In this document: piece after piece, positions 4,274 through 42,773 of the stretch
Position numbering within the stretch: position 1 is the first letter of the stretch
Layout: each line of letters starts with the position of its first letter
NCBI GenBank assembly: GCA_963802185.1
Contig: CAWDHU010000015.1
Span: forward strand, 657,781-721,780
Length of the DNA stretch: 64,000 nt
Reading direction: 5' to 3'
DNA from: an uncultured Bacteroidales bacterium
GTDB lineage: Bacteria; Bacteroidota; Bacteroidia; Bacteroidales; UBA4417
The notes under the pieces: generated by a model
The model's database searches: none
The model's input: the letters and a program-made list of their open reading frames with translations, nothing else
Told to the model about the DNA's origin: nothing
Program-made: the position numbers and the translations under genes

Positions 4274-4527
4274 GTGAGAATAGATACCCTATCCTTTGCG
4301 CGAAGCAAAAGAACAGAAGTTATAAGTGGTTTGGTACTTTATCCGGAAATTTGAAAAAGGTAATACTTTTTTAAAGATAATATTTTGATTAATTCTGATT
4401 GTGCGAAAATACAAGTAAACGGCTTGAAAAGTATAATCCGGAAATCACTTGTTTTGCCTTCCGTATTTCATTATCTTTGTTTATACACTTTCAGCTCGTT
4501 TGCATATTGATTTTTAAAAGGATAGTT

Positions 4528-12440: not shown

Positions 12441-12814
12441 GGGGCTGACCGGTTTTGACAGCAAGGACAGTGGGATTGTAAGCATGCCGGGACTTTGAGT
12501 GAATGGCCCGCTAAAACCAAATACTCACGCCAACTAAATGGCAACAATTACGATTACGCATTAGCCGCTTAATCACAGTATTAACCTGCTAATTGTCCTC
12601 CGGGAAGCCTCGCCATCCGGCGTTCCGCTAAAGGGCATCGAAAAGGGAAGGATAAGGTTGCCGGAGTCCTGACGGCAGCTCGAAAACCAAAGGGAATAAG
12701 GCAAGGATTGGGTGGCTTTTTGCCGGTTCCTGCCCGACAATCAACTAGAAGCTAAGCATGTAGAAAGCGGTTTTGCTGCTTGTTTGGACCCGGGTTCGAC
12801 TCCCGGCAGCTCCA
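12441..12814 (+). ncRNA. ssrA: tmRNA (SsrA)
   Basis: The 5' ggggctg pairs with the 3' cagctcc acceptor stem. There is a T-arm ggttcgactcc and an internal tag reading frame ggc aac aat tac gat tac gca tta gcc gct taa (GNNYDYALAA stop). Confidence 0.9.
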
Positions 12815-12838
12815 CAAACAAGAAACAAAAATGTAGAT

Positions 12839-13057: not shown

Positions 13058-14416
13058 CTAAAAGATCAAACTAAACACAGTTTCCTTTCCCGGAACCGAC
13101 CGTACCTGAAGACTTCCACCATGAAGCCGCATAATTTGTCTGGAAAGGCTCAAACCAATACCTGAGCCGTTTTCTCTGGTGGTAAAGAACGGAACAAAAA
13201 TCTGTTCCAGAATTTCATCCGGAATTCCAGGGCCATTGTCGATTACCCGGATCTCGGGGCGATGCTCAGAATTAAACCCGGCAATTACCTGGATTTTACC
13301 TTCCGGGTTCTTTTCGTTGGCTTGCAAAGCATTTTTTGTTAAATTGATAAGCACCTGCGAAATCAGGTTTTCATCAGCGAAAAGCTCCATTTCCGGAGGG
13401 TTGACGGTTACAGTCAGTTTTATTATTTCACTGTTTTCGAGCGAAGTATACAAAACTTTAATCCTTGAGATAAGTTCTTCTACCCGGAAGATTTTCTTGT
13501 CAGGTTTTGGAAGCCGGGTTAGTTTCCTGTATGACTCAACGAACAACATCAGGCCATTTCCTTGTTCTTTAATGACACTCAAGCCTCGCAGTGTAGTCTG
13601 TATGGTTGTTTCGGTTACTTCTTCCGGAAGAGCGGGTCGCCCATCGATCATGAAAAACTGGCATAGACTTTCAGAGAGTGACGTGATTGGGGCAATCGAA
13701 TTCATAATTTCGTGCATCAGTACCCGAATTAGTTTCATCCACGAATCGAATTCTTTTTCATCCAGTTCATTCCGGATATCCTGAATCGTAAGTAAAATCA
13801 ATTCATTATCCTTTGTTTTGAATGAGGTCGCCTTTAATCGATAGTTGCATAGATTCCCCGTTCACTGTAGTAACAGAAACTAATTTCTGCTGAAATGGCT
13901 GAATATTCCTGTATGGACTGAAAGAGGTTACGGTTAACTCTTTCCAGTTGATTGATGTGGGTGAGCACATCAACTCCCAACATTTTCTTTGCAGCCGAGT
14001 TGGCATGAAGTACAAATCCCTTTGTATCGAAAGTCACGATTCCTGTACCCACGTGTTCGAGCAAGGTTTGAAAATATTGTTCCTGTTGACTGCTTTCAAT
14101 CTTTAACTGCTGAATTTGTTTATTGACTTTGTTGAGGCCCTCATAGATTTCACGGATCGGTTTGTCTGTAATATTTGTTGGAAACGTAAGCATCGAGTCC
14201 TCATTTTGAACCGATTCCAGGAAATAGCTTATTTTTCGATTTGTCGAATTCAGATAAATGACCAGGTTGAAAATCACAATTATGACCAGAACAATGCACA
14301 AAAAAATCAAGATTGTCCGATTGGCCGGAAGCCAGCAAAAAACCGGCGATCAGGCTAAATAAAACAATCAGTATAATCCTGAAAATGATTTGAAAATAGA
14401 AGTTTCGTCCGATCAT
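13058..14416 (-). pseudogene. Sensor histidine kinase (TM-PAS-HisKA-HATPase), frame-disrupted
   Basis: One kinase is split over four overlapping ORFs (14416-14201, 14310-13834, 14015-13806, 13801-13058). It has an H-box [11 protein letters not shown] and a G-box DNGPGI...GSGIGLSL. One shift maps to an A7 run at 14300-14306. The start overlaps the RR stop (ATGA). Confidence 0.75.
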
Positions 14417-15777
14417 TGTCCCGATTTTTTTATCTTGTTATAAAGTGTCTGCCTTGTAATTCCAAGCTGGTCAGCGGCAGCGCTAAGGTTTCCATTGTTT
14501 TTTTCAATGGCAAGATTGATCATCCGTTTTTCCATTTCCTCAAGGGTAAGTTCTGTTTCGTTTGTTCTATCCGAAAAAACCTGCTTCATGAAAAAATCAT
14601 CGGCTTTCAAGACATTTCCTTCACTCAAGATGACAGCTTTCTCAATGGTATGCTGCAGTTCGCGGATATTTCCGGGCCACGAATATTTGAGCAGTTTATC
14701 CTGAGCCTGCTGGTTGATTTTCAGACTGGGTTTGCTGTATTTTGAGGAATACTTCTTCAGGAAAAAATCGGTCAGCACCAGTATGTCGTTTCCGCGTTCG
14801 CGCAGTGGCGGAACTTCAATCTGTATGGTGTTGATCCGGTATAGCAGGTCCTCGCGGAATAATCCTTCGTGTACCATGCTTTCCAGTTTTTTATTGGTGG
14901 CGCAAATCAGCCTGATGTCAATCGGGATGGTTTGATTGGAACCGATTCGTGAAATCTGTCGGTTCTGGATAGCAGCCAGTAGTTTTGCCTGAAGATGAAA
15001 AGAAAGATTGCCAATCTCATCCAAAAAAAGACTGCCTTTATCGGCAACTTCAAATTTTCCGGGTCGGTTTTCGCGGGCATCGGTAAACGCGCCCTTCACG
15101 TGACCAAATAATTCGCTTTCAAACAAGGTTTCGGCGATGGCACCCATGTCAACACTTACTAATACTTCATGCGAACGTTCAGACAATCGGTGAATCTCGT
15201 GGGCAATCAATTCTTTCCCGGTTCCGTTCTCTCCGGTAATCAGTACATTGGCATCGGTTTTAGCCACTTTCCGCACCAGATTCAGCATCTGCATCAGTTG
15301 CGGTGACGAGCCAACAATAAATTTTTGTTCGCGGTTTATTTCCGTTTTCAGTCCCTTCTCTTTTTCCTTCAGCTGGCTCACTTCCTTCTTCGACCAGTTG
15401 AGCTGAAGGGCTGATTTCAGGGTTGCCAGTAATTTGTTATTGTCCCAGGGTTTCAGGAAAAAATCGGTTGCCCCCATCTTCAATGCTTTCACGGTCAACT
15501 CAATATCGCCAAAAGCGGTAATCATGACAACCGAAATCTCAGGATTTGATTCTTTGATTCGTCCAAGCCAATAAATACCTTCATTGCCGGTATTTATTCC
15601 TGCATTAAAATTCATGTCGAGAATAACCAGGTTATATTCTTTCTTCCGCAGTTCTGTCGGAATCCGATTGGGATCGGAAAGCGTAGTGACGGTTTGAAAT
15701 TCAGGAGTCAGGAAAATCTCCAATGCACTTAAAATACTCTTGTTGTCGTCAACAATCAGAATGTTTCCTTTTGCCAT
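14413..15777 (-). CDS. Sigma-54-dependent response regulator (REC-AAA+-Fis HTH, NtrC family)
   Basis: Receiver domain (IVDDN...ILDMNF), Walker A GENGTGKE, sigma-54 contact loop GAFTDA, and a C-terminal HTH AADQLGITRQTLYNKIKK. It is intact at 454 aa. Confidence 0.9.
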   Translation of the reverse strand: MAKGNILIVDDNKSILSALEIFLTPEFQTVTTLSDPNRIPTELRKKEYNLVILDMNFNAGINTGNEGIYWLGRIKESNPEISVVMITAFGDIELTVKALKMGATDFFLKPWDNNKLLATLKSALQLNWSKKEVSQLKEKEKGLKTEINREQKFIVGSSPQLMQMLNLVRKVAKTDANVLITGENGTGKELIAHEIHRLSERSHEVLVSVDMGAIAETLFESELFGHVKGAFTDARENRPGKFEVADKGSLFLDEIGNLSFHLQAKLLAAIQNRQISRIGSNQTIPIDIRLICATNKKLESMVHEGLFREDLLYRINTIQIEVPPLRERGNDILVLTDFFLKKYSSKYSKPSLKINQQAQDKLLKYSWPGNIRELQHTIEKAVILSEGNVLKADDFFMKQVFSDRTNETELTLEEMEKRMINLAIEKNNGNLSAAADQLGITRQTLYNKIKKSGQ

Positions 15778-15917
15778 TTTTTTGATTTAAAGGCTAATCT
15801 GATACGAAAAGCCGGGTTTCTATCAGGCGATTTTAGTTTTTTGACTTTTTAGAGTATTCAAAGGTAATTGGCTTTCTCTCCAAAATCAATAGAGTGTCAA
15901 ATCTTTATACAAACCAT

Positions 15918-15934
15918 TGTCAATTATTTTAACT
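15918..15934 (+). promoter_or_regulatory. Candidate UAS half-palindrome (TGTCAA-N5-TTAACT) for the adjacent RR
   Basis: It resembles TGTCAA-N5-TTGACA at 24588 and sits 54 nt upstream of the -24/-12 motif. Extra TGTCAA/TTGAC half-sites occur at 15895 and 15964. Confidence 0.45.
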
Positions 15935-15988
15935 CAGGCAAAGTCGTTGGCATTCTAAGTTGTTGACTGACAATATGTTTACGATTTT

Positions 15989-16004
15989 GGCATTATTCTG
16001 GCAC
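15989..16004 (+). promoter_or_regulatory. Sigma-54 (-24/-12) promoter of the exporter operon
   Basis: TGGCATTATTCTGGCA has GG and GC at the spacing of the consensus TGGCACG-N4-TTGCW. Confidence 0.6.
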
Positions 16005-16179
16005 ATTCTTTTCAAATATGCAGAAGAATGAAACGAACGCTTGATTTTTGCAAGGGAACGCGGTTATGGGAGTGAGCCCAAAGGAAGATGGAATAGGAAG
16101 AACGAGGGCCGGAATCCGAAGAAAATATTTGAATAACGCATTTCGGGGCCGGAATTGTAGCTTCAAATTTTTTTACGTG

Positions 16180-17438
16180 ATGGGAATGGATAGAATCTTA
16201 GAAAAGAAAAAAGGCCTGAGACCAAGACAAATCATCTGGATAGCCGGAGGATTGGCATTCGCCTTTTTGTTGTACAAAGTAATTTTTGCTGAAACCGGCC
16301 CAACCTTCAGGGCTGAAAAAGACAAGCTAACCATCAGTACAGTGGAAGACGGCTTGTTTAACGACTACATCACAGTAATTGGCCAGGTTGAACCAATCAC
16401 TACTATTTATCTGGATGCTATCGAAAGTGGGCAGATTCAGGAACGTTTCATCGAAGAAGGATCGATGGTTCAGAAAGGCGACGTGATTCTTCGCCTCGAA
16501 AACCGCCAGTTGTATCAAACCATCCTGAACAGTGAAGCTGCTCTGGCCGAAAAGGAAAACTACCTGCGAAATACGCGCATCAGTTTCGAAACAGAGTTGA
16601 TACAGTCGCGCAAAAATATACTTGACAGCCGGTACCGCCTGAACCGTAAAAAACGTTCGTTCGAGCAGAACAAAGCTCTTTTCGACGAACAGCTGATTTC
16701 GAAAGAAGATTATCTGCAGGCCAAAGAAGATTACGAATATGAAGAGAATATGCTCGAAATCAATAAAGTGAAAGCCAAAAACGATTCACTGATCCGGTTG
16801 ACCTCGATGCAATCACTGGAAACCGACCTGGTAAAAATGCGTCAGATGTTGGTGCTGGTACGCGAACGACTCGATAACCTGAACGTGAAAGCTCCGGTTA
16901 ACGGTCAGCTTGGGAATGCTTGAATGCCGAAATCGGACAGCGAGTCAATGAAGGCCAGCGCATTGGACAAATTAACGTACTCGATAATTTTAAAATCAAT
17001 GCCCTGATTGATGAACATTACATCGACCGCGTGGTTCGGGACCTTCCGGCTACTTTAGACCGCAATGGGACCAATTTCAACCTGAAAGTCAGGAAAGTAT
17101 ATCCTGAAGTGCGCAATGGTCAATTTAAAATCGATGTGGTATTTGATGGCACAACACCCGATAATATCCGCACCGGCCAAAGCTACCACATCAAGCTTGA
17201 ACTGGGCGAATCGGGCAAAGCAGTATTACTGCCACGAGGCGGATTCTTCCAAAGTACCGGGGGTCAATGGGTGTTTGTGCTGAACGAAGACGGAACCGAG
17301 GCAACCAAACGCAATATCAGGATCGGCAAACAAAATCCACAGTATTACGAAGTACTTGAAGGCCTCAAAGCCGGTGAACAAGTCATCACTTCAGGGTACG
17401 AAATGTTTGGAACGAACGACAGGATTGTGTTGAAGTAG
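16180..17438 (+). pseudogene. HlyD/MacA-type periplasmic adaptor subunit, one frameshift near 16915-16925
   Basis: ORFs 16048..16923 and 16920..17438 together form one adaptor: TM anchor, coiled coil, and a C-terminal beta domain (PVNGQLGN / NAEIGQRVNEGQRIGQI). The likely start is MGMDRILEKKKG at 16180. Confidence 0.75.
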
Positions 17439-17591
17439 CAGAAAAGACAATGGGCAGAGAGTTCATAACTTGAATCCGGTAGTAGTAATGATAAGATAAA
17501 ACTTTGTATATTATTTTCATAACTTAAATACATTTAGCAAACATTAATTTGTAATTTTAACGAGATAAAACTTCTAATAAAAATAAAAACA

Positions 17592-18291
17592 ATGATCAGA
17601 ACAGTAAATTTAAACAAAGTGTTCCGCACCGAAGAGATTGAAACCAGTGCGTTGAACGAGGTGAACCTTCACATACAAAAGGGCGAATTTGTAGCCATCA
17701 TGGGACCTTCGGGTTGCGGCAAATCAACTTTACTAAATATTATCGGCCTGTTGGACAATCCAACTTCAGGTGAAGTATTATTTCGACAGTCAGGAAGTAG
17801 GCGATTTTAAAGAACGCAACCGCACTTTGCTCCGAAAAGGCAATATTGGCTTCGTGTTCCAGAGTTTTAACCTGATCGATGAGCGTAACGTGTATGAAAA
17901 TGTGGAACTTCCGCTCATCTACCTGAAATTGAGCGCTAAAGAGCGCAAGGAAATGGTCGAAAAAGTGCTGGAACGTATGAAAATAAGTCACCGGAAGAAA
18001 CACTTCCCGCAACAATTATCCGGAGGACAGCAGCAGCGTGTGGCCATTGCGCGTGCAGTGGTTGCCAATCCAAAACTGATTCTGGCCGATGAGCCAACCG
18101 GAAACCTCGATTCGAAAAACGGTCTGGAAGTGATGAAACTGCTCACGGAACTCAACCGCGAAGGAACCACCATCGTGATGGTGACACACTCCATGCACGA
18201 TTCAGAATTTGCACACCGGGTGGTGAATCTGTTCGACGGGCAAATTATTACTGAGGAAGTGAAAAAGCAGATGGGAGAAATGCTGGTCTAA
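17592..18291 (+). pseudogene. ABC transporter ATP-binding protein (MacB/LolD type), one frameshift near 17768-17772
   Basis: Walker [10 protein letters not shown] lies in ORF 17592..17810. The signature LSGGQQQRVAIARA and Walker B LILADEPTGNLD lie in ORF 17770..18291. Confidence 0.8.
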
Positions 18292-18362
18292 ATAGTCTTG
18301 AATGAACATTATACGTGATTAACTGAAGCCCAGGATTTTGAAAACCCAAACGATATCAGTCC

Positions 18363-20727
18363 ATGCAAAACATATTTAAATCAACTTACCGGAATTTCAT
18401 CAGGAAACCAACCACCAACCTTATCAACCTGATTGGGCTGGCAGTGAGTTTAGCCTTGGTTATCGTATTGTCGGTTTATTCGTACAGCGAACTGACCACC
18501 GACAATTACCATAAGAACGGCGATCGGGTTTATCTTTTCGCCGATATGAATGGTCAATTGCATATGCCTGCAATATTAAAAGACCAGATCGATCTGAATA
18601 TTCCGGAAGTCGAATCAACCGTAAGGATGGCCAGCACATGGGAAACTCCTGTATTCCAGGTCGGAGATCGTGAACCGATAACTTCGGATCTTGTTTTTGC
18701 AGACGAGGATTTCTTCCAACTATTCACCTACCGACCGGTTGAAGGCAATCTCGAAACTTCGTTGAAAGAACCCATGACCATTGTTCTTACCAAAACTCTT
18801 GGCCAAAAAACTTTTTGGAAACGAACCAGCACTGGGCAAAACGGTGAAGCTGAACAACGATAAAGAACTAACAGTTTCAGCAGTTATTAATGAGCCTGAA
18901 GCCAATTCAAGCCTGTCTTTCAGCGCGTTAACCTCAATTGCCACGCGCAAAATTGTTCTTCCCACTGATGGCGAGTTTACTGATTGGGGATGGTGCAGTT
19001 TCCTGACATTCACACTTTTAAAAGAAGGAACTAACCCGGATGAAACTGCGAAAAAGATCATCGCTCTTTTCCCGAAGAACGATCAGGAGAAATACTCTAA
19101 ATTGAAACTGAATCCATTTGGGAAAATCTATTTTTCCAAATTTGCACTTGGTGGAACCAATTATCTGCATTGTGGCGACAAACGAAAAGTAATGATCCTG
19201 ATGATGGTGGCAGCACTGGTACTGATGATTGCATTGGTCAATTTTATTAACATTTCTTCTTCACAATGGATGGAGAAAATCAGGCAAACAGGTGTTCAAA
19301 AGTGTTTGGCGCTGGTAATGTGAACATCCTCATAAATTCACTTTCCGAAGCCTTTATTCTGTTTTTGATGTCGCTTTTTTTTGCAATCCTGATCGTTCGG
19401 GCTCTATTCCCATTCATCAGTAGCATTACCGGAATTCAGTTCAATATTCAATTGCTTTACAAGCCTTCTTTCCTGATGGTTTCCATTGCCGTAACTTTTA
19501 TCCTTAGTATGGTTTTCAGTATTATTCCAGCCTTACGCATCTCCTCGTCGAAAGCAGTTGACAACCTGAAGAAAACAGTTGCAAGGGGTTCTAAAAATTC
19601 CTTTTCCCAGGGACTTCTGGTGACTACCCAATTTGTAATTGCTATTGTGCTAATCGCTTTTACCATTTTGGTTCAAAAGCAGGTTAACTTTGGAAGTAGC
19701 AAACTGGGATTTTATCAGAAAAACATAATAGGTATCAAGTTAACACCACAGTTGAACGGGAAAAAAGAGGTGCTCAAAAAGTTGCTACAGGACAAACCTA
19801 CTGTTACAGAAATCTCGTTTACTCAATATTACCCGGGAAACATGCTTTCGAACTGGAGAACAAATCAGGAAATAAACGGCGTGAGAAAAGAACTCAGTTT
19901 TGATACATTTAATGCTGATGCCAACTTCTGTTCAATGATAGGATTACAACTTATACAAGGACGCTTTTTCTTAGAAGACCTGGCTACCGACCAGCATAAA
20001 ATGATTGTGAATGAAAGCTTCCTTCGGGAAAACAAAATAGACAATCCGATTGGCGCTAAATTCATGATGGGCTTTGGTATGGATGCAGGCCTTTCCGAAA
20101 TAATCGGTGTAGTAAAAGATTTTCATTACAAAGCGGTCAACCAGCCCATCATAGCGTTGGTCATACAAAATGAACCGGATGCATCCTATTGCCTTGTCAA
20201 ACTGCAAACCAACGATTTCACTTCACTGCATACAACCATTCAGGATATCAAAAAAGTAACCAAAGACCTTTCTCCTTCTTTTCCGGTCGAAATCACCTTT
20301 TTCGATCAGGCTATTGAGAATATGTATAAATCGGAATTACAATTTCAACACACCTTTTCACTGTTTGCCGGAATGCGCTATTGTGATCTGTTGCATGGGA
20401 ATTTTCGCCATGTCGCTGTTTGCTTGTCAGCGCCGGATCAAGGAGATCGGCATTCGTAAGGTAAACGGAGCCCGTATTTCAGAAGTAATGACAATGCTGA
20501 ACCGCGACTTTGTGAAATGGGTTGCCATTGCCTTTGTAGTTGCCACGCCCATTGCCTGGTTCATCATGAACAAATGGCTCGAAAGTTTTGCCTACAAAAC
20601 TGACTTGAGTTGGTGGATTTTTGCCCTGGCTGGAATACTGGCCCTGGGAATTGCGCTATTGACGGTGAGCTGGCAAAGCTGGAAAGCAGCGACAAGGAAC
20701 CCGGTGGAAGTATTGAGGTATGAGTAG
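18363..20727 (+). pseudogene. MacB-like FtsX-domain ABC permease (~788 aa), three frameshifts
   Basis: Four overlapping ORFs (18363-18863, 18781-19323, 19266-20459, 20314-20727) read as one permease. The shifts are near 18800, 19298-19301 (an A4 run) and 20367-20382. The C-terminal FtsX motif is EIGIRKVNGA. Confidence 0.8.
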
Positions 20728-20750
20728 CCATTCAAATTAAAAATGAAATT

Positions 20751-23139
20751 ATGAAGAAAGTTAGAAATATTTTCAGGCATCTTATTCGCCGGGGATTGAC
20801 CACTTCGTTTGTGTTGATCAGTTTTACGTTGGCCTTTAGCTGTTGCATTTTAGTGTACCTTTTTGTTGCCGATGAGTTGTCATTCGATAAGCACAATGCA
20901 AATTTTGCCCATATCTACCGACTAAACCTACAGTCGAAAGACAAAACTTATAAGAGTTGTTCGTTCCCGGCTGTTTTCGAGGAAAAGTTCATCAAAATTC
21001 CGGGTATTGAAAAGTACGCAAGGCTTCAGTCCTATATGGGGGAAAATTTTATTTCGATTGATAATACAACTTTTACAGCAACCAGTTTCTTGTTTGCCGA
21101 TCCAGAAATCCTTGATATTCTTCAATTTGATTTCCTTATGGGCAACCCTAAAGAAGCTTTGGCGAAGCCGTTGAATGTTATAATCAGCCAATCGACTGCG
21201 CAAAAATATTTTGGCAATACCAATCCAATAGGAAAGATAATCAGGCAGGACGATCAGGATTTTACGGTTTCAGCAGTTGTGAAAGACCTGCCCAGGCAAT
21301 CGCATTTTACCATGAATTTCCTTGCCCCTGTGGCGAGCTATCAGATAAAAAACGACGACTTGCTTACAAAATGGTACATACAAGCTTTCCGTTTCTATTT
21401 GCTGATCCCGGATGGGGTAAACAAGAAGGAAGTAGAAACCCAATTAGCCAATCTTTATGCCGAAGGGAATGGAATTGACAAAAACAAGCGGGAGTTTGAT
21501 ATGTACCTGGAGCCTTTAAGTGATATTCATCTGAAGTCGGTTGGCACACGTTGGGATAACGCCATTAAAGGCGATATTCAAGTAGTTTATGGATTGTGTA
21601 TCGTTGCGTTGCTCATTCTGGGAATAGCCATTGCCAACTACATCAATATGCTGACCGCCGATTGCCGGCGAAAAGCAAAAGAAACCAGCATACAACGGGT
21701 GAATGGAGCTTCAGGATATAACATTATTGCCGATCAGGTTCTTGAAACATCGATTTTCCTTCTGTTTGCCTTTCTGTTGTCAATGGTATTAACTTTTCAG
21801 ATGTTGCCGGTTGTCAATAACTTAAGCGGCAAATTATTGTCGGTTAATTGGTCGGTGCTGATACCCGGCCTGGCTTTGCTTGCCACGTCCATCATTTTAT
21901 CTGCCATCTATCCAATACTATTCCTGAATTCCATAAAACCTGTTGAAGCCCTTAAAAACCAGATCAACATCATCAAGGTTAAAAGTCAGCAAAAACAGCA
22001 ATGGTTAAGAGGCGCTCTGGTTACCTTCCAATTGGCCATAGCCACCCTGTTAATTGCTTCAACTATTGTGATCAACAACCAGCTACAGTTGGTTATGAAT
22101 GCAAAAACAGGCTTCGATAAAGAAAATACCCTTATCGTTTACAACCCGTATACTGAAGGTATGAATGAACGTTATGATCTGTTCAGGCAAAAACTGAGCA
22201 ATGTGCCCATGATAAAAAGTATCGGTGTTGCACAAAATGCCCCTGGCAATACCATCAATAATTTTTCTCCTGCCTGGTTGCCTGATCAGAAAAATCAAAA
22301 AGCTGACCTTGGCCAAATTTCCGTTGACTACGATTTTCTGCAAACAATAGGTGCAAAATTTGTGGCTGGCCGCAATTTCGACATCAATGTTGCAAGCGAT
22401 AAAACAACAGGGATGATCATTAACCAATCAGCCGTTAGAGCGCTCAATTTAACCGATCCTATAGGTAAAAAAATTGTCGTCCAGAACAATGTTGATACTC
22501 CCAACAATGAACTTGAGGTAATTGGAGTGATCGAAGACATGCAATATTTCACCCTGCGTGAAGCTTCGAAACCAGTAATGTACTATATCAAGGATTGGGG
22601 CAGGTATGAAATTGCCTTGAAACTGGGCAGCGGTAATTATTCTGCAACATTAAAGCAGATTGAAACCATCTGGAAAGAAATAGCTCCTCAATGGCCAATT
22701 CAGCTACCAGTTTTTGGATGAAAGAATCAACAATAATTACAGATCGGAAATAAACACGGGAAAAATAATAACCGGGCTGTCAGGCATTTCCATTTTCCTT
22801 TCCATTCTGGGAATATTGGGTATGATCCTGATTACCATACAGCAACGCACCAAGGAGATTGGAATCCGCAAGGTGAATGGTGCCCAAATCTCCGAAGTAT
22901 TGATGATGCTGAACAAAGACTTTGTAAAATGGGTAGCCATTGCTTTTGTAATTGCCACGCCCATTGCGTGGTATGCTATGCACAAATGGCTCGAAAACTT
23001 TGCCTACAAAACTGAATTGAGCTGGTGGATTTTTGCCTTGGCAGGATTAATTGCATTGGGAATTTCATTGCTTACTGTGAGTTGGCAAAGTTGGAAAGCG
23101 GCCACAAGGAATCCGGTAGAGGCGTTGAGATATGAATAA
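20751..23139 (+). pseudogene. MacB-like FtsX-domain ABC permease paralog (~796 aa), one frameshift near 22701-22705
   Basis: ORFs 20751..22721 and 22714..23139 join as ...WPIQ/YQFLDERINNNY. The C-terminus is almost identical to that of the preceding paralog (EIGIRKVNGAQISEV...AATRNPVEALRYE). Confidence 0.8.
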
Positions 23140-23278
23140 CCGAGTATTTAATTTCAATGATGAAGTAATTTTAATATGTTTTCAGGTATTCATCAACCGA
23201 TCGAACATGAATTCGCATGAGTTGCCACGAAAGGCTTAACTCGATTCCGGAAAATACTCTTTTCTCGATTTAATGAAA

Positions 23279-23305
23279 GGCTGTCATTTTGTGACGGTCT
23301 TTTTC
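23279..23305 (+). terminator. Rho-independent terminator of the exporter operon
   Basis: ggctgtca-ttttg-tgacggtc followed by ttttt. Confidence 0.65.
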
Positions 23306-23369
23306 CTTTTCACGCTCCTTCTGCAACTTGATTCTTTCTTTAGCCAGCTGTAAATAGTGTCAGGGTAAT

Positions 23370-23386
23370 TGCCAATTTATTTGACA
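23370..23386 (+). promoter_or_regulatory. Candidate UAS (TGCCAA-N5-TTGACA)
   Basis: Imperfect palindrome located 53 nt upstream of the -24/-12 motif. Confidence 0.5.
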
Positions 23387-23439
23387 CATTCAAACCTCAG
23401 AAGATTTACAATACACTGATATTGAGCATATAAAGCTTT

Positions 23440-23455
23440 TGGCATGAATCTGGCA
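23440..23455 (+). promoter_or_regulatory. Sigma-54 (-24/-12) promoter
   Basis: TGGCATGAATCTGGCA lies 80 nt upstream of ATG 23536. Confidence 0.6.
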
Positions 23456-23535
23456 TCCAGAAATACTAAAAGACAAAATCGAAACAAAATTTAGGTTTCA
23501 AAAAAATAACTTATTTATCTTTAACACTCAAAATC

Positions 23536-24342
23536 ATGAACACAATAACCAATTATCAGGAATCAGAAAACTTAGGAACAATCAGAAAATCTCTTTTGGC
23601 ATTACTGATGATGAAAAATAAATTGATTTTTGTATTAACATTTCTGATTTCAGTAGTGATTGTGAGGATTCTTATGATCAGATACTTTATTGATATTAGT
23701 CCCATAGTTGTTGCTATAGCTTTTATATTGATTCTACGTGATAAGTTTTCGGACTTACGTTTACGGCTGTTTAATCCTTTGTCATTCATTGTAATTATAT
23801 TAATTACTTATGTTGTATTGTTTTTAACGATTTCTAATTCAGTCCTACTTTAAATTCAGTGAATTTTCGTTCATTACTGATAAAGGTACAATAATAGGAT
23901 ATTTTTTGTCTGCAATAATTATGTGGGATTTACAGAGGAAACTGCCTGGCGTGGTTATTTATTTAGCAAATTAAAAGATTTGACCTGGTTTCAAATTACG
24001 ATAATTATTAACCTGATTTGGGCAATCTGGCATATCCCATCTCATTTTAATGTCCTTGAGGGTCATATCTGGATAAGTTTTCCTTTATTTATTGTGACGT
24101 GTTTTGAGCTTGGAATCATTATGCAATATTTGAGAGTAAAGACAGATTCTGTTATTCCATGTATTCTTTTTCATGCATTATTTATATTTCCATTAATGTT
24201 GGCTGGTTTAAAAACTAAAGTTTTATATTTAGGGAGTTTTCCATACATTATTATGTTACTGTTGTTGTTGCCAATAACTATTTATTGCTATAGAGCAGGA
24301 CAAAGAATCCATGAAAAACAAAACAACAGGGCAAAACGATAG
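23536..24342 (+). pseudogene. CPBP-family (CAAX/Abi-like) intramembrane glutamic protease, two frame disruptions
   Basis: The N-terminal TM part is ORF 23536..23853 and the catalytic part is ORF 23923..24342. The catalytic part carries EExxxR (FTEETAWRG), FxxxH (AIWHIP) and a later FHALF. The linking segment reads only in another frame (KFSEFSFITDKGTIIGYFLSAII, 23852-23922). Confidence 0.65.
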
Positions 24343-24494
24343 CACAATGCTTAATTTCGCGCCAAACTAACCCCCAAAAAAGCTTTGGCTAAGCCCTTGA
24401 TGTTATCCTAAACCGACCGGCCATGAAGTCGAATGATTTGCCGCGACAGGCTCAACCCTATTCCTAGAAATAATCTGACCTCGAATTAATGAAA

Positions 24495-24522
24495 GACTGT
24501 CACTTAATGACGGTCTTTTTTT
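24495..24522 (+). terminator. Rho-independent terminator after the CPBP gene
   Basis: gactgtca-cttaa-tgacggtc followed by ttttttt. Confidence 0.65.
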
Positions 24523-24587
24523 CTTTTCACGCACCTTCTATTACTTGATTCTTTCTTTAGCCATCTGTAAAATATCACCAGGGTAAT

Positions 24588-24604
24588 TGTCAATTTATTT
24601 GACA
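24588..24604 (+). promoter_or_regulatory. Candidate UAS, perfect palindrome TGTCAA-N5-TTGACA
   Basis: tgtcaatttatttgaca lies 53 nt upstream of the -24/-12 motif. Confidence 0.55.
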
Positions 24605-24657
24605 CATTCAAACCTTAACAACTTCGCAACACACTGATAATGAAGAAATAAAATTTT

Positions 24658-24673
24658 TGGCATGAATCTGGCA
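24658..24673 (+). promoter_or_regulatory. Sigma-54 (-24/-12) promoter
   Basis: TGGCATGAATCTGGCA lies 81 nt upstream of ATG 24755. Confidence 0.6.
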
Positions 24674-24754
24674 TCCTGAAATACTACAAGACAAAATGAA
24701 AACAAACAACAGGTTTAGAAAACAAAAACATATTAATCTTAAACCCTTAAAATC

Positions 24755-27233
24755 ATGACAACAACAATCAATTATCATCAATCAGAAAACCGGGGAACAA
24801 TCAGAAAATCTCTTTTGGCATTACTGATGATAGTTTTGTTTACAACACTGGCTTTCAGTCAGAAACTTATCACAAACCGTAAGAGGCACTATACTTGATG
24901 CCGACAGTAAATTGCCGCTGATAGGCGCTACAGTTATAATACCTGGTACCGACCCGTTAATTGGTGCGACAACTGATTTAGACGGTAAGTTCAGACTGGA
25001 AAACATACCAATAGGCAGAATTACAATCCAATTGTCCTACATGGGTTACGATCCTGTAACAATTCCAAACATTGAAGTGAATTCGGGTAAGGAGGTCGTT
25101 TTAAATCAAAGCATGCAGGAATCGGCAATAAAACTGGATGAAATTGTAGTATCGGGCCGAAAAAAAGGAGAAGCAATAAACGACATGTCTCAGTTAAGTT
25201 TACATTCCATTACACTTGAAGAAACTAAACGTTTTACCGGGGGAATGGACGATCCTGCCCGCGTAGTTTCCAGTTTTGCAGGAGTAGCCAGTACGCCCAA
25301 TGGCAGCAGCGATATTATAGTACGCGGAAATTCACCCAAATACATGCAATGGCGTTTGGAAGGAGCAGAAATTTCGAGTCCTTACCATATGGATGATCAA
25401 AATGCTTCGTTTGGAGCCCTTACAGCCCTGAATAATAATTTATTAGCCACCTCCGATTTTTATACAGGGGCTTTTTCGTCAGAATATGGCGATGCATTAT
25501 CGTGTGTTTACGATGTAAAACTCCGGTCGGGAAATAACGAAAAGTTTGAAGCAACCGGCGGGATTGGCTTAATGGGTACAGAACTTACCCTTGAAGGTCC
25601 GCTTAAAAAGGGATATGCAGGCTCATGCCTGTTTAATTACAGGTACTCTACAATTTCGCTGATTAAAGAGCTGGGGCTGGTGGATGTGCCCGGAGGTGTG
25701 AATTACCAGGATGCAACCTTTAAAGTAGTTCTGCCTACTAAAAAAACAGGTACTTTTTCCATCTATGGGTTGGGTGGTTTAAGTGGTGTTTCAATGGAGA
25801 ATATGGGGCCAACAGGCCTGTCAACACCAGGCAGACCAGTCACAAACGCTCTTGTCAGCCGAGATTTTTACAAGGCAAATTATCTGGCTAATCTTGGAAT
25901 GAACCATGTTTTATCGCTTAACGAAAAAAGCTTTATTAAAACGTCATTTAATTATTCGGGAACTGGTATGGACGATGATATTTATGAGAAGGATACAATA
26001 AAAACATATAACAATATTGATGAATTTACTGGTGATTCCATTTCTCCCAGAACACAAATGCTTCAAGGCAGGATTGTGAATTCAGCAATCAGGGGGGCAA
26101 CTACTTACAGCAATAAAATCGATGAAAAAAATAAAATTCAAATAGGTACAAAATACACGCTTTATAACTTCAATTACAATCAAAACATCTATAGCAGTGA
26201 GGTAGATTCCATGGTTAACGTAAATGACTTTAAAAATAATTTAAGTACAATAAATAATTTTATAAACTGGAAACACAGCTTTAATGATAAAATGGTTGTT
26301 GTGGCAGGTATACATAACATGAATGTTTTAAACAAAAATATAAGCACGATTGAACCAAGATTAAGTATTAACTGGAATATGAATGAAACCAATTCGCTGC
26401 ATGCAGGATACGGTATGCACAGCACCACAGAAAGTATACATAATTATTTTACAAAAATCCCGCAAGCAGATGGCAGTTTTATTGAGCCAAATAAAAATCT
26501 CGGATTGTTAAAAGCCCATCATTATGTATTGGGCTATGAAAAACGCTTCACGGAAAATTTAGTGGGGAAAATTGAGGTTTACTACCAGTCGCTTTACAAT
26601 TTGCCGGTCGAAAATAACGACAGCAGTTATTATTGCACCATTAACGAGGGCATCGATTTTAAATATGTTGAACTGGTTAATAAAGGCACAGGTAAAAACT
26701 ACGGCGTGGAAATGTCCATCGAACGGTTTTTTGATAATAATTTCTACTTTTTGCTAAATGGATCGTTATTCGATTCGAAATACAAATCCTTGGAAGGAGT
26801 GTGGCGAAATACCCGGTATAATAACAAATATATTGTAAATATTTTAGGTGGAAAAGAGTTTAAAAATCTTGGTAAAAAACAAAACCAGACCCTGGCAGTA
26901 AATACGAAAATATTCTTCGAAGGTGGCCAACGGTATATTCCGCTTCTGAGAGATGCCCAGGGAAATGTAGCTGTTGAACCCGAAAACGACAGATATTTTG
27001 ACTATAGCAAAGCATATAATGATAAACTTGACAACATATTTTACCTGAATTTATCGGTCAGCTACAAGTTAAATAAACCCAGGGCTACACATGAAATTTT
27101 TCTGGATCTGATGAACCTTACAAACAATCAGGCCAGAATGACTGAATATTATGATGAGAGCAAACCTGACAAAGTTGGCTATACTACTTCATTTGGATTT
27201 TTCCCAAACTTAATGTACCGGGTATATTTTTAA
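24755..27233 (+). pseudogene. TonB-dependent receptor (CarboxypepD_reg-like domain, plug, barrel) with a frameshift just after the signal peptide (~24866-24870)
   Basis: ATG 24755 encodes MTTTINYHQSENRGTIRKSLLALLMIVLFTTLAFSQKL and then stops. The main ORF (listed as 24912..27233) is open further upstream as SQTVRGTILDADSKLPLIGATVII. The C-terminus NLMYRVYF is typical of a TBDR. Confidence 0.8.
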
Positions 27234-27263
27234 GATTGTTAAAACGCGCAAACTCAAAATGCA

Positions 27264-28544
27264 ATGAAAATTTTCCTTATTTCTTTACTGATTCTTATTC
27301 CCGGTATTCTTACTGCCCAGGAATGTAAGATTGATTTGCGCAACTTGGCACAACCGGATATTACTATGAGCCAGTTAAATAAATTCGGTCAGAGCAAAAT
27401 TTTTAAAATTGTTTTATCTGAAGGTTTTGATACCATAGCCAATAAGGATATTATCAATCAGTTATCGCAATGGTTTTTAAATCAGAACTCCCAGATTGAC
27501 ATAATAAATGTTAACGACGTTAAAAAGCTAGAGGATAGCTGCCACTATCTGATTATTGGCTTAACACGCAAACTAAATGATCTTTCGGTTTTTGATTTAC
27601 CCGTAAAGATTAACGATAACAAATGTACCCTTGGAACAATTGAACTTACAGAAGATTGCGATGCAATAACAGTGACTAACGAAAAGGCAAACTGTACAGC
27701 TGTAATTGGTAATTCATACGAAGCGTTAAGGTATATGTCATCCGGGCGTTTTCTGGGATTATATGATTATTATATTCTCAGGAATAATAAAATGGGCTAT
27801 CTGGGTAATTTGAAGGAAAATAAATTTACAGCAGATAGCCTTGTGGATTTGGCACTTATCCGAATTAAAAACTACACTCAAACAATTGATAATAAATATA
27901 TAGAATCTTGTTTTTCGTGTAAATACAAAACGGTTAGCCAGTTTCAGGGTTCGATAGATGCCTTAATAGATTCATTTGATAATTTCTGCAGGCTTTATGA
28001 AGTAGAGAAACCATCCCAAAAACTAAAATTCTTTATACATAGTGATCAACTGGAGATAAATATCGTCAGCGGTGACCCAAAACCCGGTTCGACCGGAGGA
28101 ATCGTGATCGACAGTCTGATTCATACAGTTGGGTTAGATGAGGAGCTGTTAACACATGAAGGAGTTCATTATATATTTAATTCCAATTTAAAGAGTCCAA
28201 ATGCTTTTTTTAACGAAGGTATTCCTTTGTCTTTTGCGTTGTTTCAACATTCTGAGCGTATCACGAATGATTGTAAATTAATTCAAGACAATTTAGAAAT
28301 AGAAGATTTAGTAACCGGAAAAACAGGATTCTGGAACGCACCATATAAAAACGGGCAATGTTTATCATATCCAATATCAGGCCTTTTTGTAAAATTCTTA
28401 CTGGATAAATATGGGATTGAAAAGTTAAAGAGATATTATCAATTTTCGGATGTAGCTGAAGGCTTTAAGGCTGTTTATAATGCAGAACTCCCAATAATGG
28501 TAAAAGAATGGAAAAATTATGTGCTGAAAAATATTTCTAGTTAA
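27264..28544 (+). CDS. Secreted HExxH protein, peptidase-MA-like (putative zincin)
   Basis: Signal peptide (LLILIPGILTAQ). Motif THEGVHYIF followed 15 residues later by NEGIPLSFA, which resembles the HExxH...EG arrangement of MA-clan peptidases. Confidence 0.45.
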   Translation: MKIFLISLLILIPGILTAQECKIDLRNLAQPDITMSQLNKFGQSKIFKIVLSEGFDTIANKDIINQLSQWFLNQNSQIDIINVNDVKKLEDSCHYLIIGLTRKLNDLSVFDLPVKINDNKCTLGTIELTEDCDAITVTNEKANCTAVIGNSYEALRYMSSGRFLGLYDYYILRNNKMGYLGNLKENKFTADSLVDLALIRIKNYTQTIDNKYIESCFSCKYKTVSQFQGSIDALIDSFDNFCRLYEVEKPSQKLKFFIHSDQLEINIVSGDPKPGSTGGIVIDSLIHTVGLDEELLTHEGVHYIFNSNLKSPNAFFNEGIPLSFALFQHSERITNDCKLIQDNLEIEDLVTGKTGFWNAPYKNGQCLSYPISGLFVKFLLDKYGIEKLKRYYQFSDVAEGFKAVYNAELPIMVKEWKNYVLKNISS

Positions 28545-28574
28545 AAAGAAAGAAAATTAAATAACAAGATTGCC

Positions 28575-29291
28575 ATGAAAATCGAAACAATTAAAACGAA
28601 AGGTTTTGCAATTTCAGTTATTGCATTTCCGGTAATGTTGCTCGCAGGGTTTTTAATGCACCCTAATCTCCTGAAGCTGGAGGCGCTGCAAACGGTTGAA
28701 CAACTGGTTGGAAGGTTTCATAATCAGCCTATATACCACATCGGGCACTTAATTGTAATGTTTACCGTCCCTGTCATAATGATAGCTTTGATTAGTTTCA
28801 TGAATGTATTGAACGGAACAGGCAAAAAGTTAGGTTTTTGGGGTGGAATAATAGGTTTGTTTGGAGCATTCATCTTAGCAGTCGATAAAGGCGCTTTATG
28901 TTTGGTGCTTTCGGCATTCGATACCTTGCCGGAAGATCAGTTTAAGGAGTTCGTTCCATTCCTCAGTGTTATTGTAAACAAAGCAGGAATGCTTTGGGTG
29001 GTTTGGCTGTTGCCATTATTGCCGGTTGGAGCAGCCATACAGGCATTCGGGCTGATGAAAGAGAAATTTATCAGCAAATGGCAGGGCGTATGTATTATTG
29101 TCGGCCTTCTGTTGTTGAACAACCCCGATATAGAATTAATCAGCTCCATCGGCGCTTTGCTGATGTGCGCGGGATATATTCCGTGGGGTGTTAGAATTCT
29201 TCAGGGAAGAATGAAATGTTTCTCAATAACTTGCCCTATATACGACACAAAAAAAGATAGAAACTTTAAATGCCTGAAGCCATGTGGATAG
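28575..29291 (+). CDS. Polytopic membrane protein with a Cys-rich C-terminal tail
   Basis: About 6 hydrophobic segments. The tail is CFSITCPIYDTKKDRNFKCLKPCG. Confidence 0.45.
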   Translation: MKIETIKTKGFAISVIAFPVMLLAGFLMHPNLLKLEALQTVEQLVGRFHNQPIYHIGHLIVMFTVPVIMIALISFMNVLNGTGKKLGFWGGIIGLFGAFILAVDKGALCLVLSAFDTLPEDQFKEFVPFLSVIVNKAGMLWVVWLLPLLPVGAAIQAFGLMKEKFISKWQGVCIIVGLLLLNNPDIELISSIGALLMCAGYIPWGVRILQGRMKCFSITCPIYDTKKDRNFKCLKPCG

Positions 29292-29428
29292 TTATTGGAA
29301 TAGTTACCATTTGGACGATAATTAAACGAAAGCAAAAAGGGAAAAGTGATGGATTAAACCACACTGTTGACAGCGTCAAAGCCTGACAGAAAGAAACCAA
29401 TGTTCACAATTTTATAAACAAAACGACA

Positions 29429-30697
29429 ATGAAAAATATAACACATATTCTTTTCCTGCTTCTTATAGCACAACTTTCATTCGCCCAATCCAACGAAAAA
29501 ACGAAAATATTTATAGAATGTACAAACTCATGGCTTTGCGATTTTGATTACCTGCGAACCGAATTAAGCATGGTTGATTTTGTGCGTGACCGATTTATGT
29601 CCGATGTACATGTGCAGGTAAATACACAATTCAACAGTTCGGGCAGCGAGCAAAACACCGTTATATTTAAAGGCCAGAATACTTTTTTGAATCAGGACGA
29701 CACGCTTGCTTATTTTAATGAATCCACGTTGAGTGAAGATGAGAAAAGAAAAAAAATGGCAAAAAGCATAACCCTGGGTTTGATAAAATACATTTCACAT
29801 ACCGAAGCCGCTAATAACATTGTAATTACCTACAACAAGCCTTCAAATACAGATACAGTTAATTCTGTGAAACAAACAGATCCATGGAATTATTGGATAA
29901 TAAGTTTGGGTGCAAGCGGTTTTTTTAACGGCGATGCAAATTATAAATCTCAGAGCATCAATGGTTATATGTTTGCTGACCGGGAAACTGAAGAAACAAA
30001 AACTAACATTGGCGTATCTTATAATTACAGTAAAAACGAGTTTGTGATTTCTGACGAAGAAACAGTAGTAAATGTAAAACCACAAACAAACGGATATGTA
30101 AATTTTATAAATAAAATAAATCAGCATTGGGGCTATGGGATATTCAGCACCTATGTAAATAGCGAATTTTCCAATTATGACATCAAGCTAAGTGTAATTC
30201 CTAAAGTTGAATATGATGTTTTTAAGTACAAAGACTTTAATAATCAGCGCGTTGTAATTAATTATGGTTTGGGAATTCAGTACAATAATTATAAAGACAC
30301 CACCCTGTTCTTCAAAACAGAAGAATCTTTGTTGGTTCAGAATGCAGCTGTTATAAGTTCCTTTAACAAACCGTGGGGAAGTATAAATGTTGGGGCATTC
30401 TACAACAGCTATCTGCACGACCTTACTAAATATTCACTTTCCTTTTCCGGTGCTGTTAACTGGAATATTTTTAAGGGACTAAAATTTGCTGTTGGTGGCA
30501 GTTATGATATTACCCATAACTTAATTCAGCTTTCGAAGGAGGGTGCTTCCCGTGACGAGGTTCTGCTGCAGCAAAAGCAACTTGAAAGTCAGTACAGCTA
30601 TTTTTTCGGAGTAGGTATAAGTTACCAGTTTGGAAGCAAGTTTAACAATTACATTAATCCTGCTTTTAAAGGCTTAAGTTGGGGACTAAGCTTTTAA
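29429..30697 (+). CDS. Putative outer-membrane beta-barrel protein
   Basis: Signal peptide (LLLIAQLSFAQ), alternating aromatic/Gly/Asn beta-strand pattern, and a C-terminal ...SWGLSF. Confidence 0.5.
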   Translation: MKNITHILFLLLIAQLSFAQSNEKTKIFIECTNSWLCDFDYLRTELSMVDFVRDRFMSDVHVQVNTQFNSSGSEQNTVIFKGQNTFLNQDDTLAYFNESTLSEDEKRKKMAKSITLGLIKYISHTEAANNIVITYNKPSNTDTVNSVKQTDPWNYWIISLGASGFFNGDANYKSQSINGYMFADRETEETKTNIGVSYNYSKNEFVISDEETVVNVKPQTNGYVNFINKINQHWGYGIFSTYVNSEFSNYDIKLSVIPKVEYDVFKYKDFNNQRVVINYGLGIQYNNYKDTTLFFKTEESLLVQNAAVISSFNKPWGSINVGAFYNSYLHDLTKYSLSFSGAVNWNIFKGLKFAVGGSYDITHNLIQLSKEGASRDEVLLQQKQLESQYSYFFGVGISYQFGSKFNNYINPAFKGLSWGLSF

Positions 30698-30801: not shown

Positions 30802-31731
30802 ATGGAAATGATGAAAGCAATTATTTGCACCAAATACGGACCACCTGAAGTACTTCAGGTAAAAGAAGTCGCGAAACCATTGCCAAAGCACAATGAAGTG
30901 CTGGTAGAAATAGTTGCAACTTCAGTAACAGCAAGTGATTGTATTATCAGGGGTTTCAAATTGCCTGTTAAAATGTGGATTCCTGCACGTTTGGCTTTGG
31001 GTTTAACAAAACCAAGAAAACCTATTTTAGGACTTGTATTCTCTGGAGTGGTTGAAAAAGTTGGTGTGAGTGTAACTCAATTTAAAAAGGGCGATAAAGT
31101 GTTTGCCCATACATTATTTCAATTCGGCGCTTACGCTGAATATATATGTGTTGCCGCGACCAGCGCAATTGCCCTGATGCCTTCCAATACATCATTTGAA
31201 GAAGCAGCCGCAATTCCTTTTGGCGGAACTTTAGCCTTATATTATCTGGAAAAAGCAAATATTCAGAAAGGGCAGAAAGTTCTGATTTATGGGGCTTCGG
31301 GAGCAACAGGCACTTCAGCAGTACAGCTTGCCAGGCATTTTGGCGCAGAAGTCACAGGTGTGTGCAGCACAGCTATTCTGGAATTAGTCAGATCCTTAGG
31401 TGCTGATACAGTAATTGACTACACAAAGGAGGATTTTACAGACTCCGGAAAGCATTATGATTTAATATTTGATGCCGTCGGAAAGAAAAAGAGTTCACAT
31501 TTGCTTTATAAAAAAGCCTTAAATCCCAATGGGAAATTCTTATCAGTTGATGATGATAGTCCCGGGAAACAGGCGGTTTGTAAGGCTAATCTGAATATCC
31601 TCAAAAAACTTACTGAGAATGGCATATTAAAACCTGTTGTAGGCAGAATTTATCCATTGGATCAAACAAAAGAGGCTCATAGGTATGTTGACAAAGGTCA
31701 TAAAAAAGGGAATGTAATTATTACTATTTAG
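30802..31731 (+). CDS. NAD(P)H-dependent quinone oxidoreductase / zinc-type alcohol dehydrogenase-like (MDR family)
   Basis: MKAIICTKYGPPEVLQ, nucleotide-binding LIYGASGATGTSAVQLA, and a C-terminal [19 protein letters not shown]. Confidence 0.85.
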   Translation: MEMMKAIICTKYGPPEVLQVKEVAKPLPKHNEVLVEIVATSVTASDCIIRGFKLPVKMWIPARLALGLTKPRKPILGLVFSGVVEKVGVSVTQFKKGDKVFAHTLFQFGAYAEYICVAATSAIALMPSNTSFEEAAAIPFGGTLALYYLEKANIQKGQKVLIYGASGATGTSAVQLARHFGAEVTGVCSTAILELVRSLGADTVIDYTKEDFTDSGKHYDLIFDAVGKKKSSHLLYKKALNPNGKFLSVDDDSPGKQAVCKANLNILKKLTENGILKPVVGRIYPLDQTKEAHRYVDKGHKKGNVIITI

Positions 31732-32375: not shown

Positions 32376-33318
32376 ATGCAAAAGATGAAAGCAGTTATTT
32401 GCACCAAATACGGACCACCGGAAGTCCTGCATTTAAGAGAAGTTGAAAAACCTGTTCCAAAAGATAATGAAGTACTGATAAAAGTAATTGCAACAACAGT
32501 ACACATTGGCGACACTAAGATCCGGCGATTAGAGCCCGGTATGGGACCCGTCAAAGATTTCTTTTTCAAGCCCATGATGCGGTTCATGTTGGGTTTCAAA
32601 GGACCAAGAAATAAAATACTTGGAATGGAACTGGCCGGAGACGTGGAAGAAGTAGGCAAAGACGTAACGCAGTTTAAGCCAGGCGATCCCGTTTTTGCAT
32701 CCACTGAATTCAGAATGGGAGCGTATGTCGAGTATTGCTGTATTCCTGAAAACGGGATTCTTGGCAATAAAACCAACCAACATGACTTACGAGGAAGCCG
32801 CACCGGTTTCCAATGGTGGATTAACAGCCTTGATAAGTCTTCGGAAAGCAAATATTCAGAAGGGGCAAAAGGTACTGATCTATGGTGCTTCCGGTAGTGT
32901 TGGTACTTATGCAGTGCAGATTGCCAAACACTTTGGGGCAGAGGTTACAGGAGTATGCAGCACTGCGAATCTGGAAATGGTTAAATCCCTTGGTGCCGAT
33001 AAGCTTATCGATTACACCCGGGAAGATTTTACACAAAGCAGTGATACTTATGACGTTATTTTTGATGCTGTAGCCAAGATTGCATCTTCAAAACGTAAGA
33101 AAGCTTTGAAAAAGTCTGGAATCTATCTAAGCGCTCATGATTTGTCAGGCAATATAAAGCTAAAGGTTAAAGACCTGATTTATCTCAAAGAACTCTGCGA
33201 GGCTGGAAAGCTAAAAACAGTCATTGACAAACGCTACCCAATGGAGCAGATAGTTGAGGCTCACAGGTATGTTGACAAAGGACACAAAAAAGGAAATGTT
33301 GTGATCACAATAGAATAA
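32376..33318 (+). pseudogene. Second MDR quinone oxidoreductase paralog, frameshift near 32760-32766
   Basis: ORF 32376..32897 (N-terminal half) and ORF 32695..33318 (C-terminal half, [17 protein letters not shown]...[20 protein letters not shown]) align end to end with 30802..31731. Confidence 0.8.
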
Positions 33319-41867: not shown

Positions 41868-41910
41868 GGTATTTGGTTTTTAATGTTTGATTTTTACTTG
41901 TAAAAAGAAA

Positions 41911-41926
41911 TTCAACAACCAGGCCA
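41911..41926 (-). promoter_or_regulatory. Sigma-54-like -24/-12 element with a non-canonical -12 (TGGCCTGGTTGTTGAA on the minus strand)
   Basis: It is conserved with 47383..47398, lies ~48 nt upstream of ATG 41867, and sits exactly 65 nt from the palindrome. Confidence 0.35.
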
Positions 41927-41991
41927 GACGATGCAATTATCAGATATACAGATATATAATAGTTTTTTTGAGTGGGAAGCTGAAATTCTTT

Positions 41992-42765: not shown

Positions 42766-42773
42766 CCAATTAA

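Follow-up and report, generated by a model that had tools for sequence, protein, structure and literature searches.

Two described settings resemble the locus analyzed here. Consensus errors of long-read assemblies are single-base insertions or deletions (indels) that truncate conserved open reading frames (ORFs), as seen in IDEEL-type truncated-ORF tests (Sereika et al. 2022, PMC9262707) and in the nanoMDBG benchmark (PMC13087279). Metagenome assemblies from Oxford Nanopore Technologies (ONT) reads contain about 4 indels per 100 kb in the case of a mock community, and more frameshifts are found in soil data (PMC13087279). Pseudogenizing bacteria, among them Mycobacterium leprae and host-restricted enterics, likewise have several adjacent, functionally linked genes that are frame-disrupted. 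Here we describe a stretch of 64,000 nt (referred to as the window) on contig CAWDHU010000015.1 of an uncultured Bacteroidales bacterium, in which a dense cluster of frame breaks falls into a predicted sigma-54-controlled module of a two-component system, an ABC-type exporter, a CPBP-family protease and a TonB-dependent receptor (TBDR). The original prediction, made from the sequence alone, left two options open for this cluster, the decay of a whole regulon around a surviving activator and poor local assembly quality. Our comparisons with related assemblies support the second option and give no support to the first: judged from the spectrum of the events and from the sister assemblies, the breaks very probably arose as local errors in the consensus of a long-read metagenome assembly, and the genes are most likely intact in the living organism.

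Single-base frame breaks between 13831 and 24869

The domain identities of the reading frames in the window were assigned by Pfam, with NCBIfam profiles in addition. The bacterium is Prolixibacteraceae-like, and the loci nearest to the window belong to metagenome-assembled genomes (MAGs) with the labels Lentimicrobiaceae, Prolixibacteraceae, Odoribacter or Bacteroidales. We placed the frame breaks by alignment with four close relatives of the window: L001, a SPAdes-named assembly with 93% nucleotide identity to the window; L020, a Microflora Danica (MFD) MAG with a Flye-style contig name and 90–94% identity; L081, contig_73981 of ERZ25039527, also with a Flye-style name and with 90–92% identity; and L083, a JGI contig of 90–94% identity that has the same gene order as the window, including the CPBP gene.

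Between 13831 and 24869, 13 single-base events (11 extra bases and 2 missing ones) break seven genes, while the sigma-54-dependent response regulator (RR) is intact. Three extra bases lie in the sensor histidine kinase (HK) on the minus strand. Two of them, at 13831 (AAA[G]GCG, the extra base in brackets; extra relative to L001, L020 and L083) and at 13912 (AT[A]CAGG), are outside homopolymers. The third had been placed in an A7 run at 14300–14306. This run exists, but the extra base fits best beside and outside it, within the 8 nt from 14307 to 14314; deleting an A from the run gives SDNLDFLC, and the homologues have SD(T/S)LIFLC. All other affected genes are on the plus strand. The HlyD-type adaptor has two extra bases at 16909–16912 and 16919–16923, 11 nt apart and with a net effect of +2, and the ABC ATPase has one at 17771–17773 (GGTGA[A]GTAT). 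The first of two FtsX/MacB_PCD permeases (FtsX-1) combines extra bases at 18798 (ACT[C]TTGG) and 20374 (GGAA[T]GCGC) with a missing base at 19297, where the window has an A4 run (19298–19301) and L020 has A5, a plausible homopolymer loss in the run to which the original prediction had assigned the shift. The second permease (FtsX-2) has an extra base at 22697 (GGCC[A]ATTC), the CPBP gene an extra base at 23836 (TTTCT[A]ATTC) and a missing one at 23925, the latter placed by alignment to the relatives, and the TBDR gene an extra base at 24869 (AACTT[A]TCAC). The earlier count of about 12 breaks, with three in HK, one in HlyD, one in the ABC ATPase, three in FtsX-1, one in FtsX-2, two in CPBP and one in TBDR, is matched by these alignments, except that the single break assigned to HlyD consists of two extra bases, which brings the total to 13.

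The three breaks that had been listed for the rest of the window, at 32760, 36000 and 53820, are real as well. All are on plus-strand genes: a +1 shift at ~32760 (frame 0 to 1) that splits a zinc-type alcohol dehydrogenase gene (32376–33318) into its ADH_N and ADH_zinc_N parts, a +1 shift at 36002 in a beta-lactamase-family gene (GCCGG[A]GATA, relative to L081), and a net −1 shift at 53812–53822 (~53816) in a second TBDR gene (53509–56591). Counting 15 events, of which 12 fall into the 18.5% of the window that the cluster occupies, the confinement of the breaks holds with a binomial P of 4e-7 and a rate ratio of ~18. The density in the cluster is ~110 per 100 kb over 11 kb, and the background in the window is ~6 per 100 kb.

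The spectrum of the cluster is one of 11 insertions to 2 deletions, all of 1 nt. Most of the 13 events lie outside homopolymers, in line with what had been noted for several of them. Homopolymer slippage fits 19297 and possibly one or two other sites, and we rejected it as the general cause. No common sequence motif, such as might accompany a methylation-type systematic error, is visible at the insertion sites. The intact RR in the middle of the cluster, to which the original prediction had drawn attention, has its full 454 residues, but among 12 random hits the probability that none falls into its 1.37 kb is 0.23, so that its escape is not statistically remarkable and carries no signal.

Consensus errors, gene decay and recoding

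The breaks are private to the window assembly, and sister assemblies have private breaks of their own at other sites. L001 and L083 are fully intact at the module. L020 contains four private frame-breaking +1 insertions, one in its RR and one in each of its three FtsX genes, over a patch of ~6.5 kb. In L081 the three FtsX genes are intact, and four to six private +1 insertions are clustered over ~3.4 kb at the window-equivalent positions 27191–30586, where the window genes are intact. The insertions of L081 at 13,800–18,400 (window-equivalent 27191–30586 and 36266) break up four or five genes whose window counterparts are intact. We also screened the orthologous loci for frame switches, with a screen that is blind to closely spaced or terminal shifts and in which some loci are duplicates across collections; it found none in HK (106 loci), RR (132), HlyD (95) or the ABC ATPase (97) of other loci, and only the window and L020 have any.

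The project that produced L020, MFD, used Nanopore reads, Flye assembly and one round of Medaka (PMC12313526). The background in the window is close to the published figure for ONT assemblies, which argues that the contig has a long-read-type error background. The window resembles published long-read errors in its background, the same defects occur in the documented L020 MAG, and the short-read-style assemblies are clean. It differs from them in that the local density of the cluster is ~25 times higher than the published long-read average and in that its errors are mainly non-homopolymer insertions, whereas homopolymer deletions are what is usually described for long-read assemblies.

Under the explanation by consensus errors, most of the events would be spurious insertions of one base, restricted to an 11.0-kb patch of a long-read assembly. 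Low depth could be responsible: long-read coverage is then correlated over stretches of about one read length, and error patches of 5–15 kb would be expected. Alternatively or additionally, reads of co-occurring relatives or strains, 90–94% identical over the block, may pile up in polishing, and some sites would then carry both alleles of a single-nucleotide polymorphism (SNP) in tandem. Such reads would pile up on this block only, because the homology of L001, L020 and L083 to the window has an abrupt start at ~13040. The sites, their spectrum, the lack of decay signatures and the recurrence of the signature in sister assemblies are shown by these comparisons, from which we infer how the source was sequenced and what acted locally (depth and/or heterogeneity).

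A number of points weigh against local consensus errors. The verdict is drawn from sequence-internal and comparative evidence and is not proven at the read level, and the long-read origin of the contig is itself deduced from its length of 1,023,520 bp (1.02 Mb) in an uncultured lineage and from the Flye-style names of its relatives. Nanopore consensus errors are usually described as homopolymer deletions and not non-homopolymer insertions; as the errors here are atypical in this respect, what carries the argument is their empirical resemblance to those of L020 and L081. The patch corresponds roughly to one functional unit. A random dip in depth would not predict such a coincidence, although a pile-up of relatives' reads that share just this block would. 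The tandem-allele pattern described below is moderately significant and holds for four of eight sister-assembly insertions. Finally, other MFD MAG loci (L044, L065 and L073) are without breaks in these genes, and closely spaced or terminal shifts are overlooked by the frame-switch screen.

Among the homologues of the corrected HK no intact kinase exceeds 91% identity, so the same species provides no direct same-strain control. Exact-protein look-ups for an independent assembly of the same strain matched window fragments only on the source contig. The Logan assembly of ERR12035938 has two window-flanking proteins exactly, and for the RR, a fragment of FtsX-2 and four further window proteins exact look-ups in an index that is patchy gave no match; since these blanks occur inside and outside the cluster alike, they allow no regional inference.

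A special case of consensus error is that of a chimeric or collapsed consensus of at least two co-occurring strains or species, in which real DNA of several genomes has been fused into a single sequence, the frameshifts being merge artefacts at polymorphic sites. We entertain this sub-case tentatively and regard it as possible though doubtful. Of 13 insertions considered (the 11 in the cluster and the two +1 sites outside), 10 are places where the extra base and its neighbor are synonymous alternatives of one codon, against a chance expectation of 0.41 (P = 0.01); HlyD provides CT[T][G]GGA and ATG[C][T]TG as examples, and the ATPase GA[A][G]TAT. At 16923 L001 has C and L020 has T, and relatives are polymorphic at the exact codon position of both 16923 and 22697. 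The abrupt start of homology at ~13040 would make this the only block to attract such reads. On the other hand, the window insertions at 14313, 20374 and 22697 do not fit the pattern, only four of the eight insertions in L020 and L081 do, and the right flank up to ~30.7 kb is also common to L081 and yet error-free in the window. Tandem SNP alleles, suggestive in the window, were rejected as the sole cause, and because the pattern holds for only half of the sister-assembly insertions, mixed-allele merging is treated here as a contributor that is not established.

The decay of the regulon fares worse. A set of 13 single-base edits (11 bases removed and 2 added) returns seven ORFs of orthologue length with zero internal stops, the restored lengths being 451 (HK), 419 (HlyD), 232 (ABC ATPase), 787 (FtsX-1), 795 (FtsX-2), 268 (CPBP) and 825 (TBDR) residues. 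In three-way alignments of the five largest broken genes, comparing the window with two sister branches over 2703 codons, there are no nonsense codons on the window branch. Window-private codon changes number 52 non-synonymous and 110 synonymous (N/S), compared with 75/200 and 101/160 on the sister branches. The window branch shows no relaxed selection, as its N/S is no higher than that of the intact sister lineages. If these codons mutated at random, ~71% of the changes would be non-synonymous and 3.8% nonsense. In bacterial mutation accumulation about ten substitutions arise per small indel; at an indel-to-substitution ratio of 1:10, 12 neutral indels would be accompanied by ~4.5 nonsense codons, and the probability of finding none is ~0.01. 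From the N/S figures we estimate room for at most ~17 neutral substitutions beside the 12–13 indels. Furthermore, spontaneous bacterial indels are of mixed sizes and homopolymer-prone, and they are reportedly deletion-biased, as Mira, Ochman and Moran are said to have found in 2001. The window events do not follow such a deletion-biased, mixed-size and homopolymer-enriched spectrum.

A genuine and very recent pseudogenization of the whole sigma-54 regulon, with its activator still intact, is thus improbable in our assessment. It draws on the facts that the deposited sequence does contain the breaks and that they keep to one functional unit, that all seven non-regulator genes are hit, and that the locus is plastic among relatives, with one to three FtsX genes, an OEP gene present or absent, and a synteny break beside a tmRNA gene. 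It has to contend with the missing nonsense codons and the N/S that is not raised, with a number of neutral substitutions far below the roughly ten per indel of bacteria, with 11:2 insertions of 1 nt where bacterial spectra favor deletions, with private insertions of identical appearance elsewhere in L020 and L081, with a module that is intact in ~100 other loci, and with an escape of the RR that is compatible with chance. Decay of the M. leprae type differs from the window in the same way: here there are no nonsense mutations, larger deletions or insertion sequence (IS) insertions, dN/dS is not raised, and the 1-nt spectrum is insertion-biased. In contrast to host-restricted decay, the window comes from an environmental, free-living lineage with a large genome, and the module is intact in all of its relatives. 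That the 13 changes are real and that the lineage has just silenced a conserved sigma-54 exporter/receptor regulon while keeping the activator, through an insertion-biased and locally concentrated process, strikes us as very improbable, and we know of no bacterial counterpart of such a process. Were the breaks real, a conserved sigma-54 regulon would have been inactivated very recently and in concert, which would be unusual.

In vivo decoding by programmed +1 frameshifting, transcriptional slippage or other recoding has next to no probability: almost every shift is +1 and the original frames stay open and conserved, but the sites have no common motif, slippery run or stop codon, they are private to the window assembly and absent from orthologues of 90–94% identity, none occurs in ~100 other loci, to our knowledge thirteen recoding sites in seven unrelated genes have no bacterial precedent, and the lack of site conservation effectively refutes the idea.

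Local consensus errors of this kind call for caution, as an 11-kb patch with ~1 frameshift per kb in a megabase MAG contig may pass for regulon decay and would silently delete seven genes from the annotation. Features that can separate such a patch from pseudogenes without reads are a 1-nt spectrum of nearly all insertions, the lack of nonsense codons, an unchanged N/S, and private breaks in sister assemblies.

The sigma-54 module and its predicted promoters

One conserved gene module spans 13058–27233. HK and RR lie on the minus strand, the exporter genes are divergent from them, and the CPBP and TBDR genes follow. The underlying module is ordinary and conserved; it is not new and occurs commonly among Prolixibacteraceae-like Bacteroidota. 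It shares with AtoSC/ZraSR-like sigma-54 two-component systems an RR with a Sigma54_activat domain and a PAS/HATPase kinase, and with exporters of the MacAB-TolC, DevBCA and DarCDE type an HlyD-type adaptor, a MacB/DarD-like ATPase and permeases with MacB_PCD and FtsX domains.

The kinase gene (13058–14416, minus strand) encodes a PAS/HATPase_c sensor of the AtoS/NtrY-like type, distributed over three frames in the window and continuous after removal of three bases. A database search with the corrected sequence returned more than 2500 homologues, almost all of them of 450 residues. The RR gene (14413–15777, minus strand) encodes Response_reg, Sigma54_activat and HTH_8 domains, that is, a receiver, an AAA+ module and a Fis-type HTH (PF00158 at 1e-66, PF00072 and PF02954), and the protein is 98% identical to its L001 orthologue. 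Its sigma-54-contact loop (residues ~229–234) reads GAFTDA, in place of the GAFTGA of the canonical enhancer-binding protein.

On the plus strand, the exporter begins with an HlyD/MacA-type periplasmic adaptor (HlyD_3; 16177–17438), which scores 156 bits on TIGR01730 against a cut-off of 94.9. It is followed by a MacB/DarD-type ABC ATPase (ABC_tran; 17592–18291) in two pieces, by FtsX-1 (18363–20727) in four pieces and by FtsX-2 (20751–23139) in two; the corrected length of FtsX-2 equals that of six intact cluster mates. Among named families the exporter matches DarC, DarD and MacB best, yet these matches stay below the NCBIfam equivalog cut-offs. Unlike MacAB-type systems, permease and ATPase are encoded by separate genes, with one to three permease paralogues, and unlike MacAB-TolC this copy has no OEP gene. 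L001 has a TolC-like OEP gene between RR and HlyD; at this locus no OEP partner gene is present in the window, L020 or L083, and it could be encoded elsewhere. The spacer between the HlyD and ABC genes contains an AT-rich insertion of 54–55 nt at 17480–17538 relative to L020 and L083.

The number of FtsX/MacB_PCD permease genes is one in L083, two in the window, and three in L020 and L081. The 3′ ends of these genes are 78–86% identical, for instance 20396–20695 and 22808–23107. Together, this similarity and the variation in copy number suggest gain and loss by recombination between paralogues.

The CPBP gene (23536–24342, plus strand, two pieces) encodes an Rce1-like intramembrane protease whose orthologue in L083 is intact with 267 residues. 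The TBDR gene (24755–27233, plus strand) has CarboxypepD_reg and Plug domains, and its orthologue in L081 has 821 residues.

As in sigma-54-controlled exporter systems, each unit of the module is preceded by a −24/−12 element. Of 129 orthologous loci, 83 have the one upstream of the exporter operon, TGGCATTATTCTGGCA at 15988–16003 on the plus strand. Sequences matching TGGCAT-N5-CTGGCA start at 15988, 23440 and 24658, ahead of all three target units, and the window as a whole has five −24/−12 matches where 0.35 are expected. With their correct spacing, the three elements are predicted sigma-54 promoters of the target units.

The CPBP and TBDR genes are each headed by one copy of a direct repeat of ~430 nt, on the plus strand, whose copies are 77–89% identical. 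Copy A (23181–23612) comprises a hairpin (23275–23303), the sigma-54 element at 23440–23455 and the first ~25 CPBP codons, and copy B (24397–24831) a hairpin (24491–24519), the element at 24658–24673 and the first ~25 TBDR codons; both hairpins are terminator-like. Through this repeat, the two genes have a common predicted promoter and N-terminal leader (MNTITNYQESENLGTIRKSLLALLM and MTTTINYHQSENRGTIRKSLLALLM). The layout is common to the window, L083 and L020, and absent from L081.

Flanks of the cluster and other genes of the window

To the left of the cluster lies a tmRNA gene (12441–12817, plus strand; Rfam RF00023, 150 bits) with the tag GNNYDYALAA. Synteny and homology with L001, L020 and L083 stop abruptly just past this gene. 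A genomic island at the tmRNA gene, with the cluster starting ~240 nt to its right, was rejected as an explanation; no repeat of the tmRNA 3′ end was found in the window and there is no integrase, which leaves island integration unsupported. The right flank is syntenic with L081 up to ~30.7 kb. This synteny, and the 90–94% identity inside and outside the cluster, lend no support to a contig that is chimeric with another organism.

The frame-broken zinc-type alcohol dehydrogenase gene has a paralogue at 30802–31731, with a DUF4386 gene between the two. Further to the right, a small lipoprotein of the Bor family known from phage lambda (42774–43079, minus strand; PF06291, 1e-22) lies beside ~900 nt of non-coding DNA (41867–42774). 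At the left end of the window, a CBM9/DUF5916 ORF (1646–4375, minus strand) has 875 codons. Its homologues of 909 residues begin ~100 nt upstream in the same frame, and because they align from there, the listed ATG of this ORF is probably not the true start.

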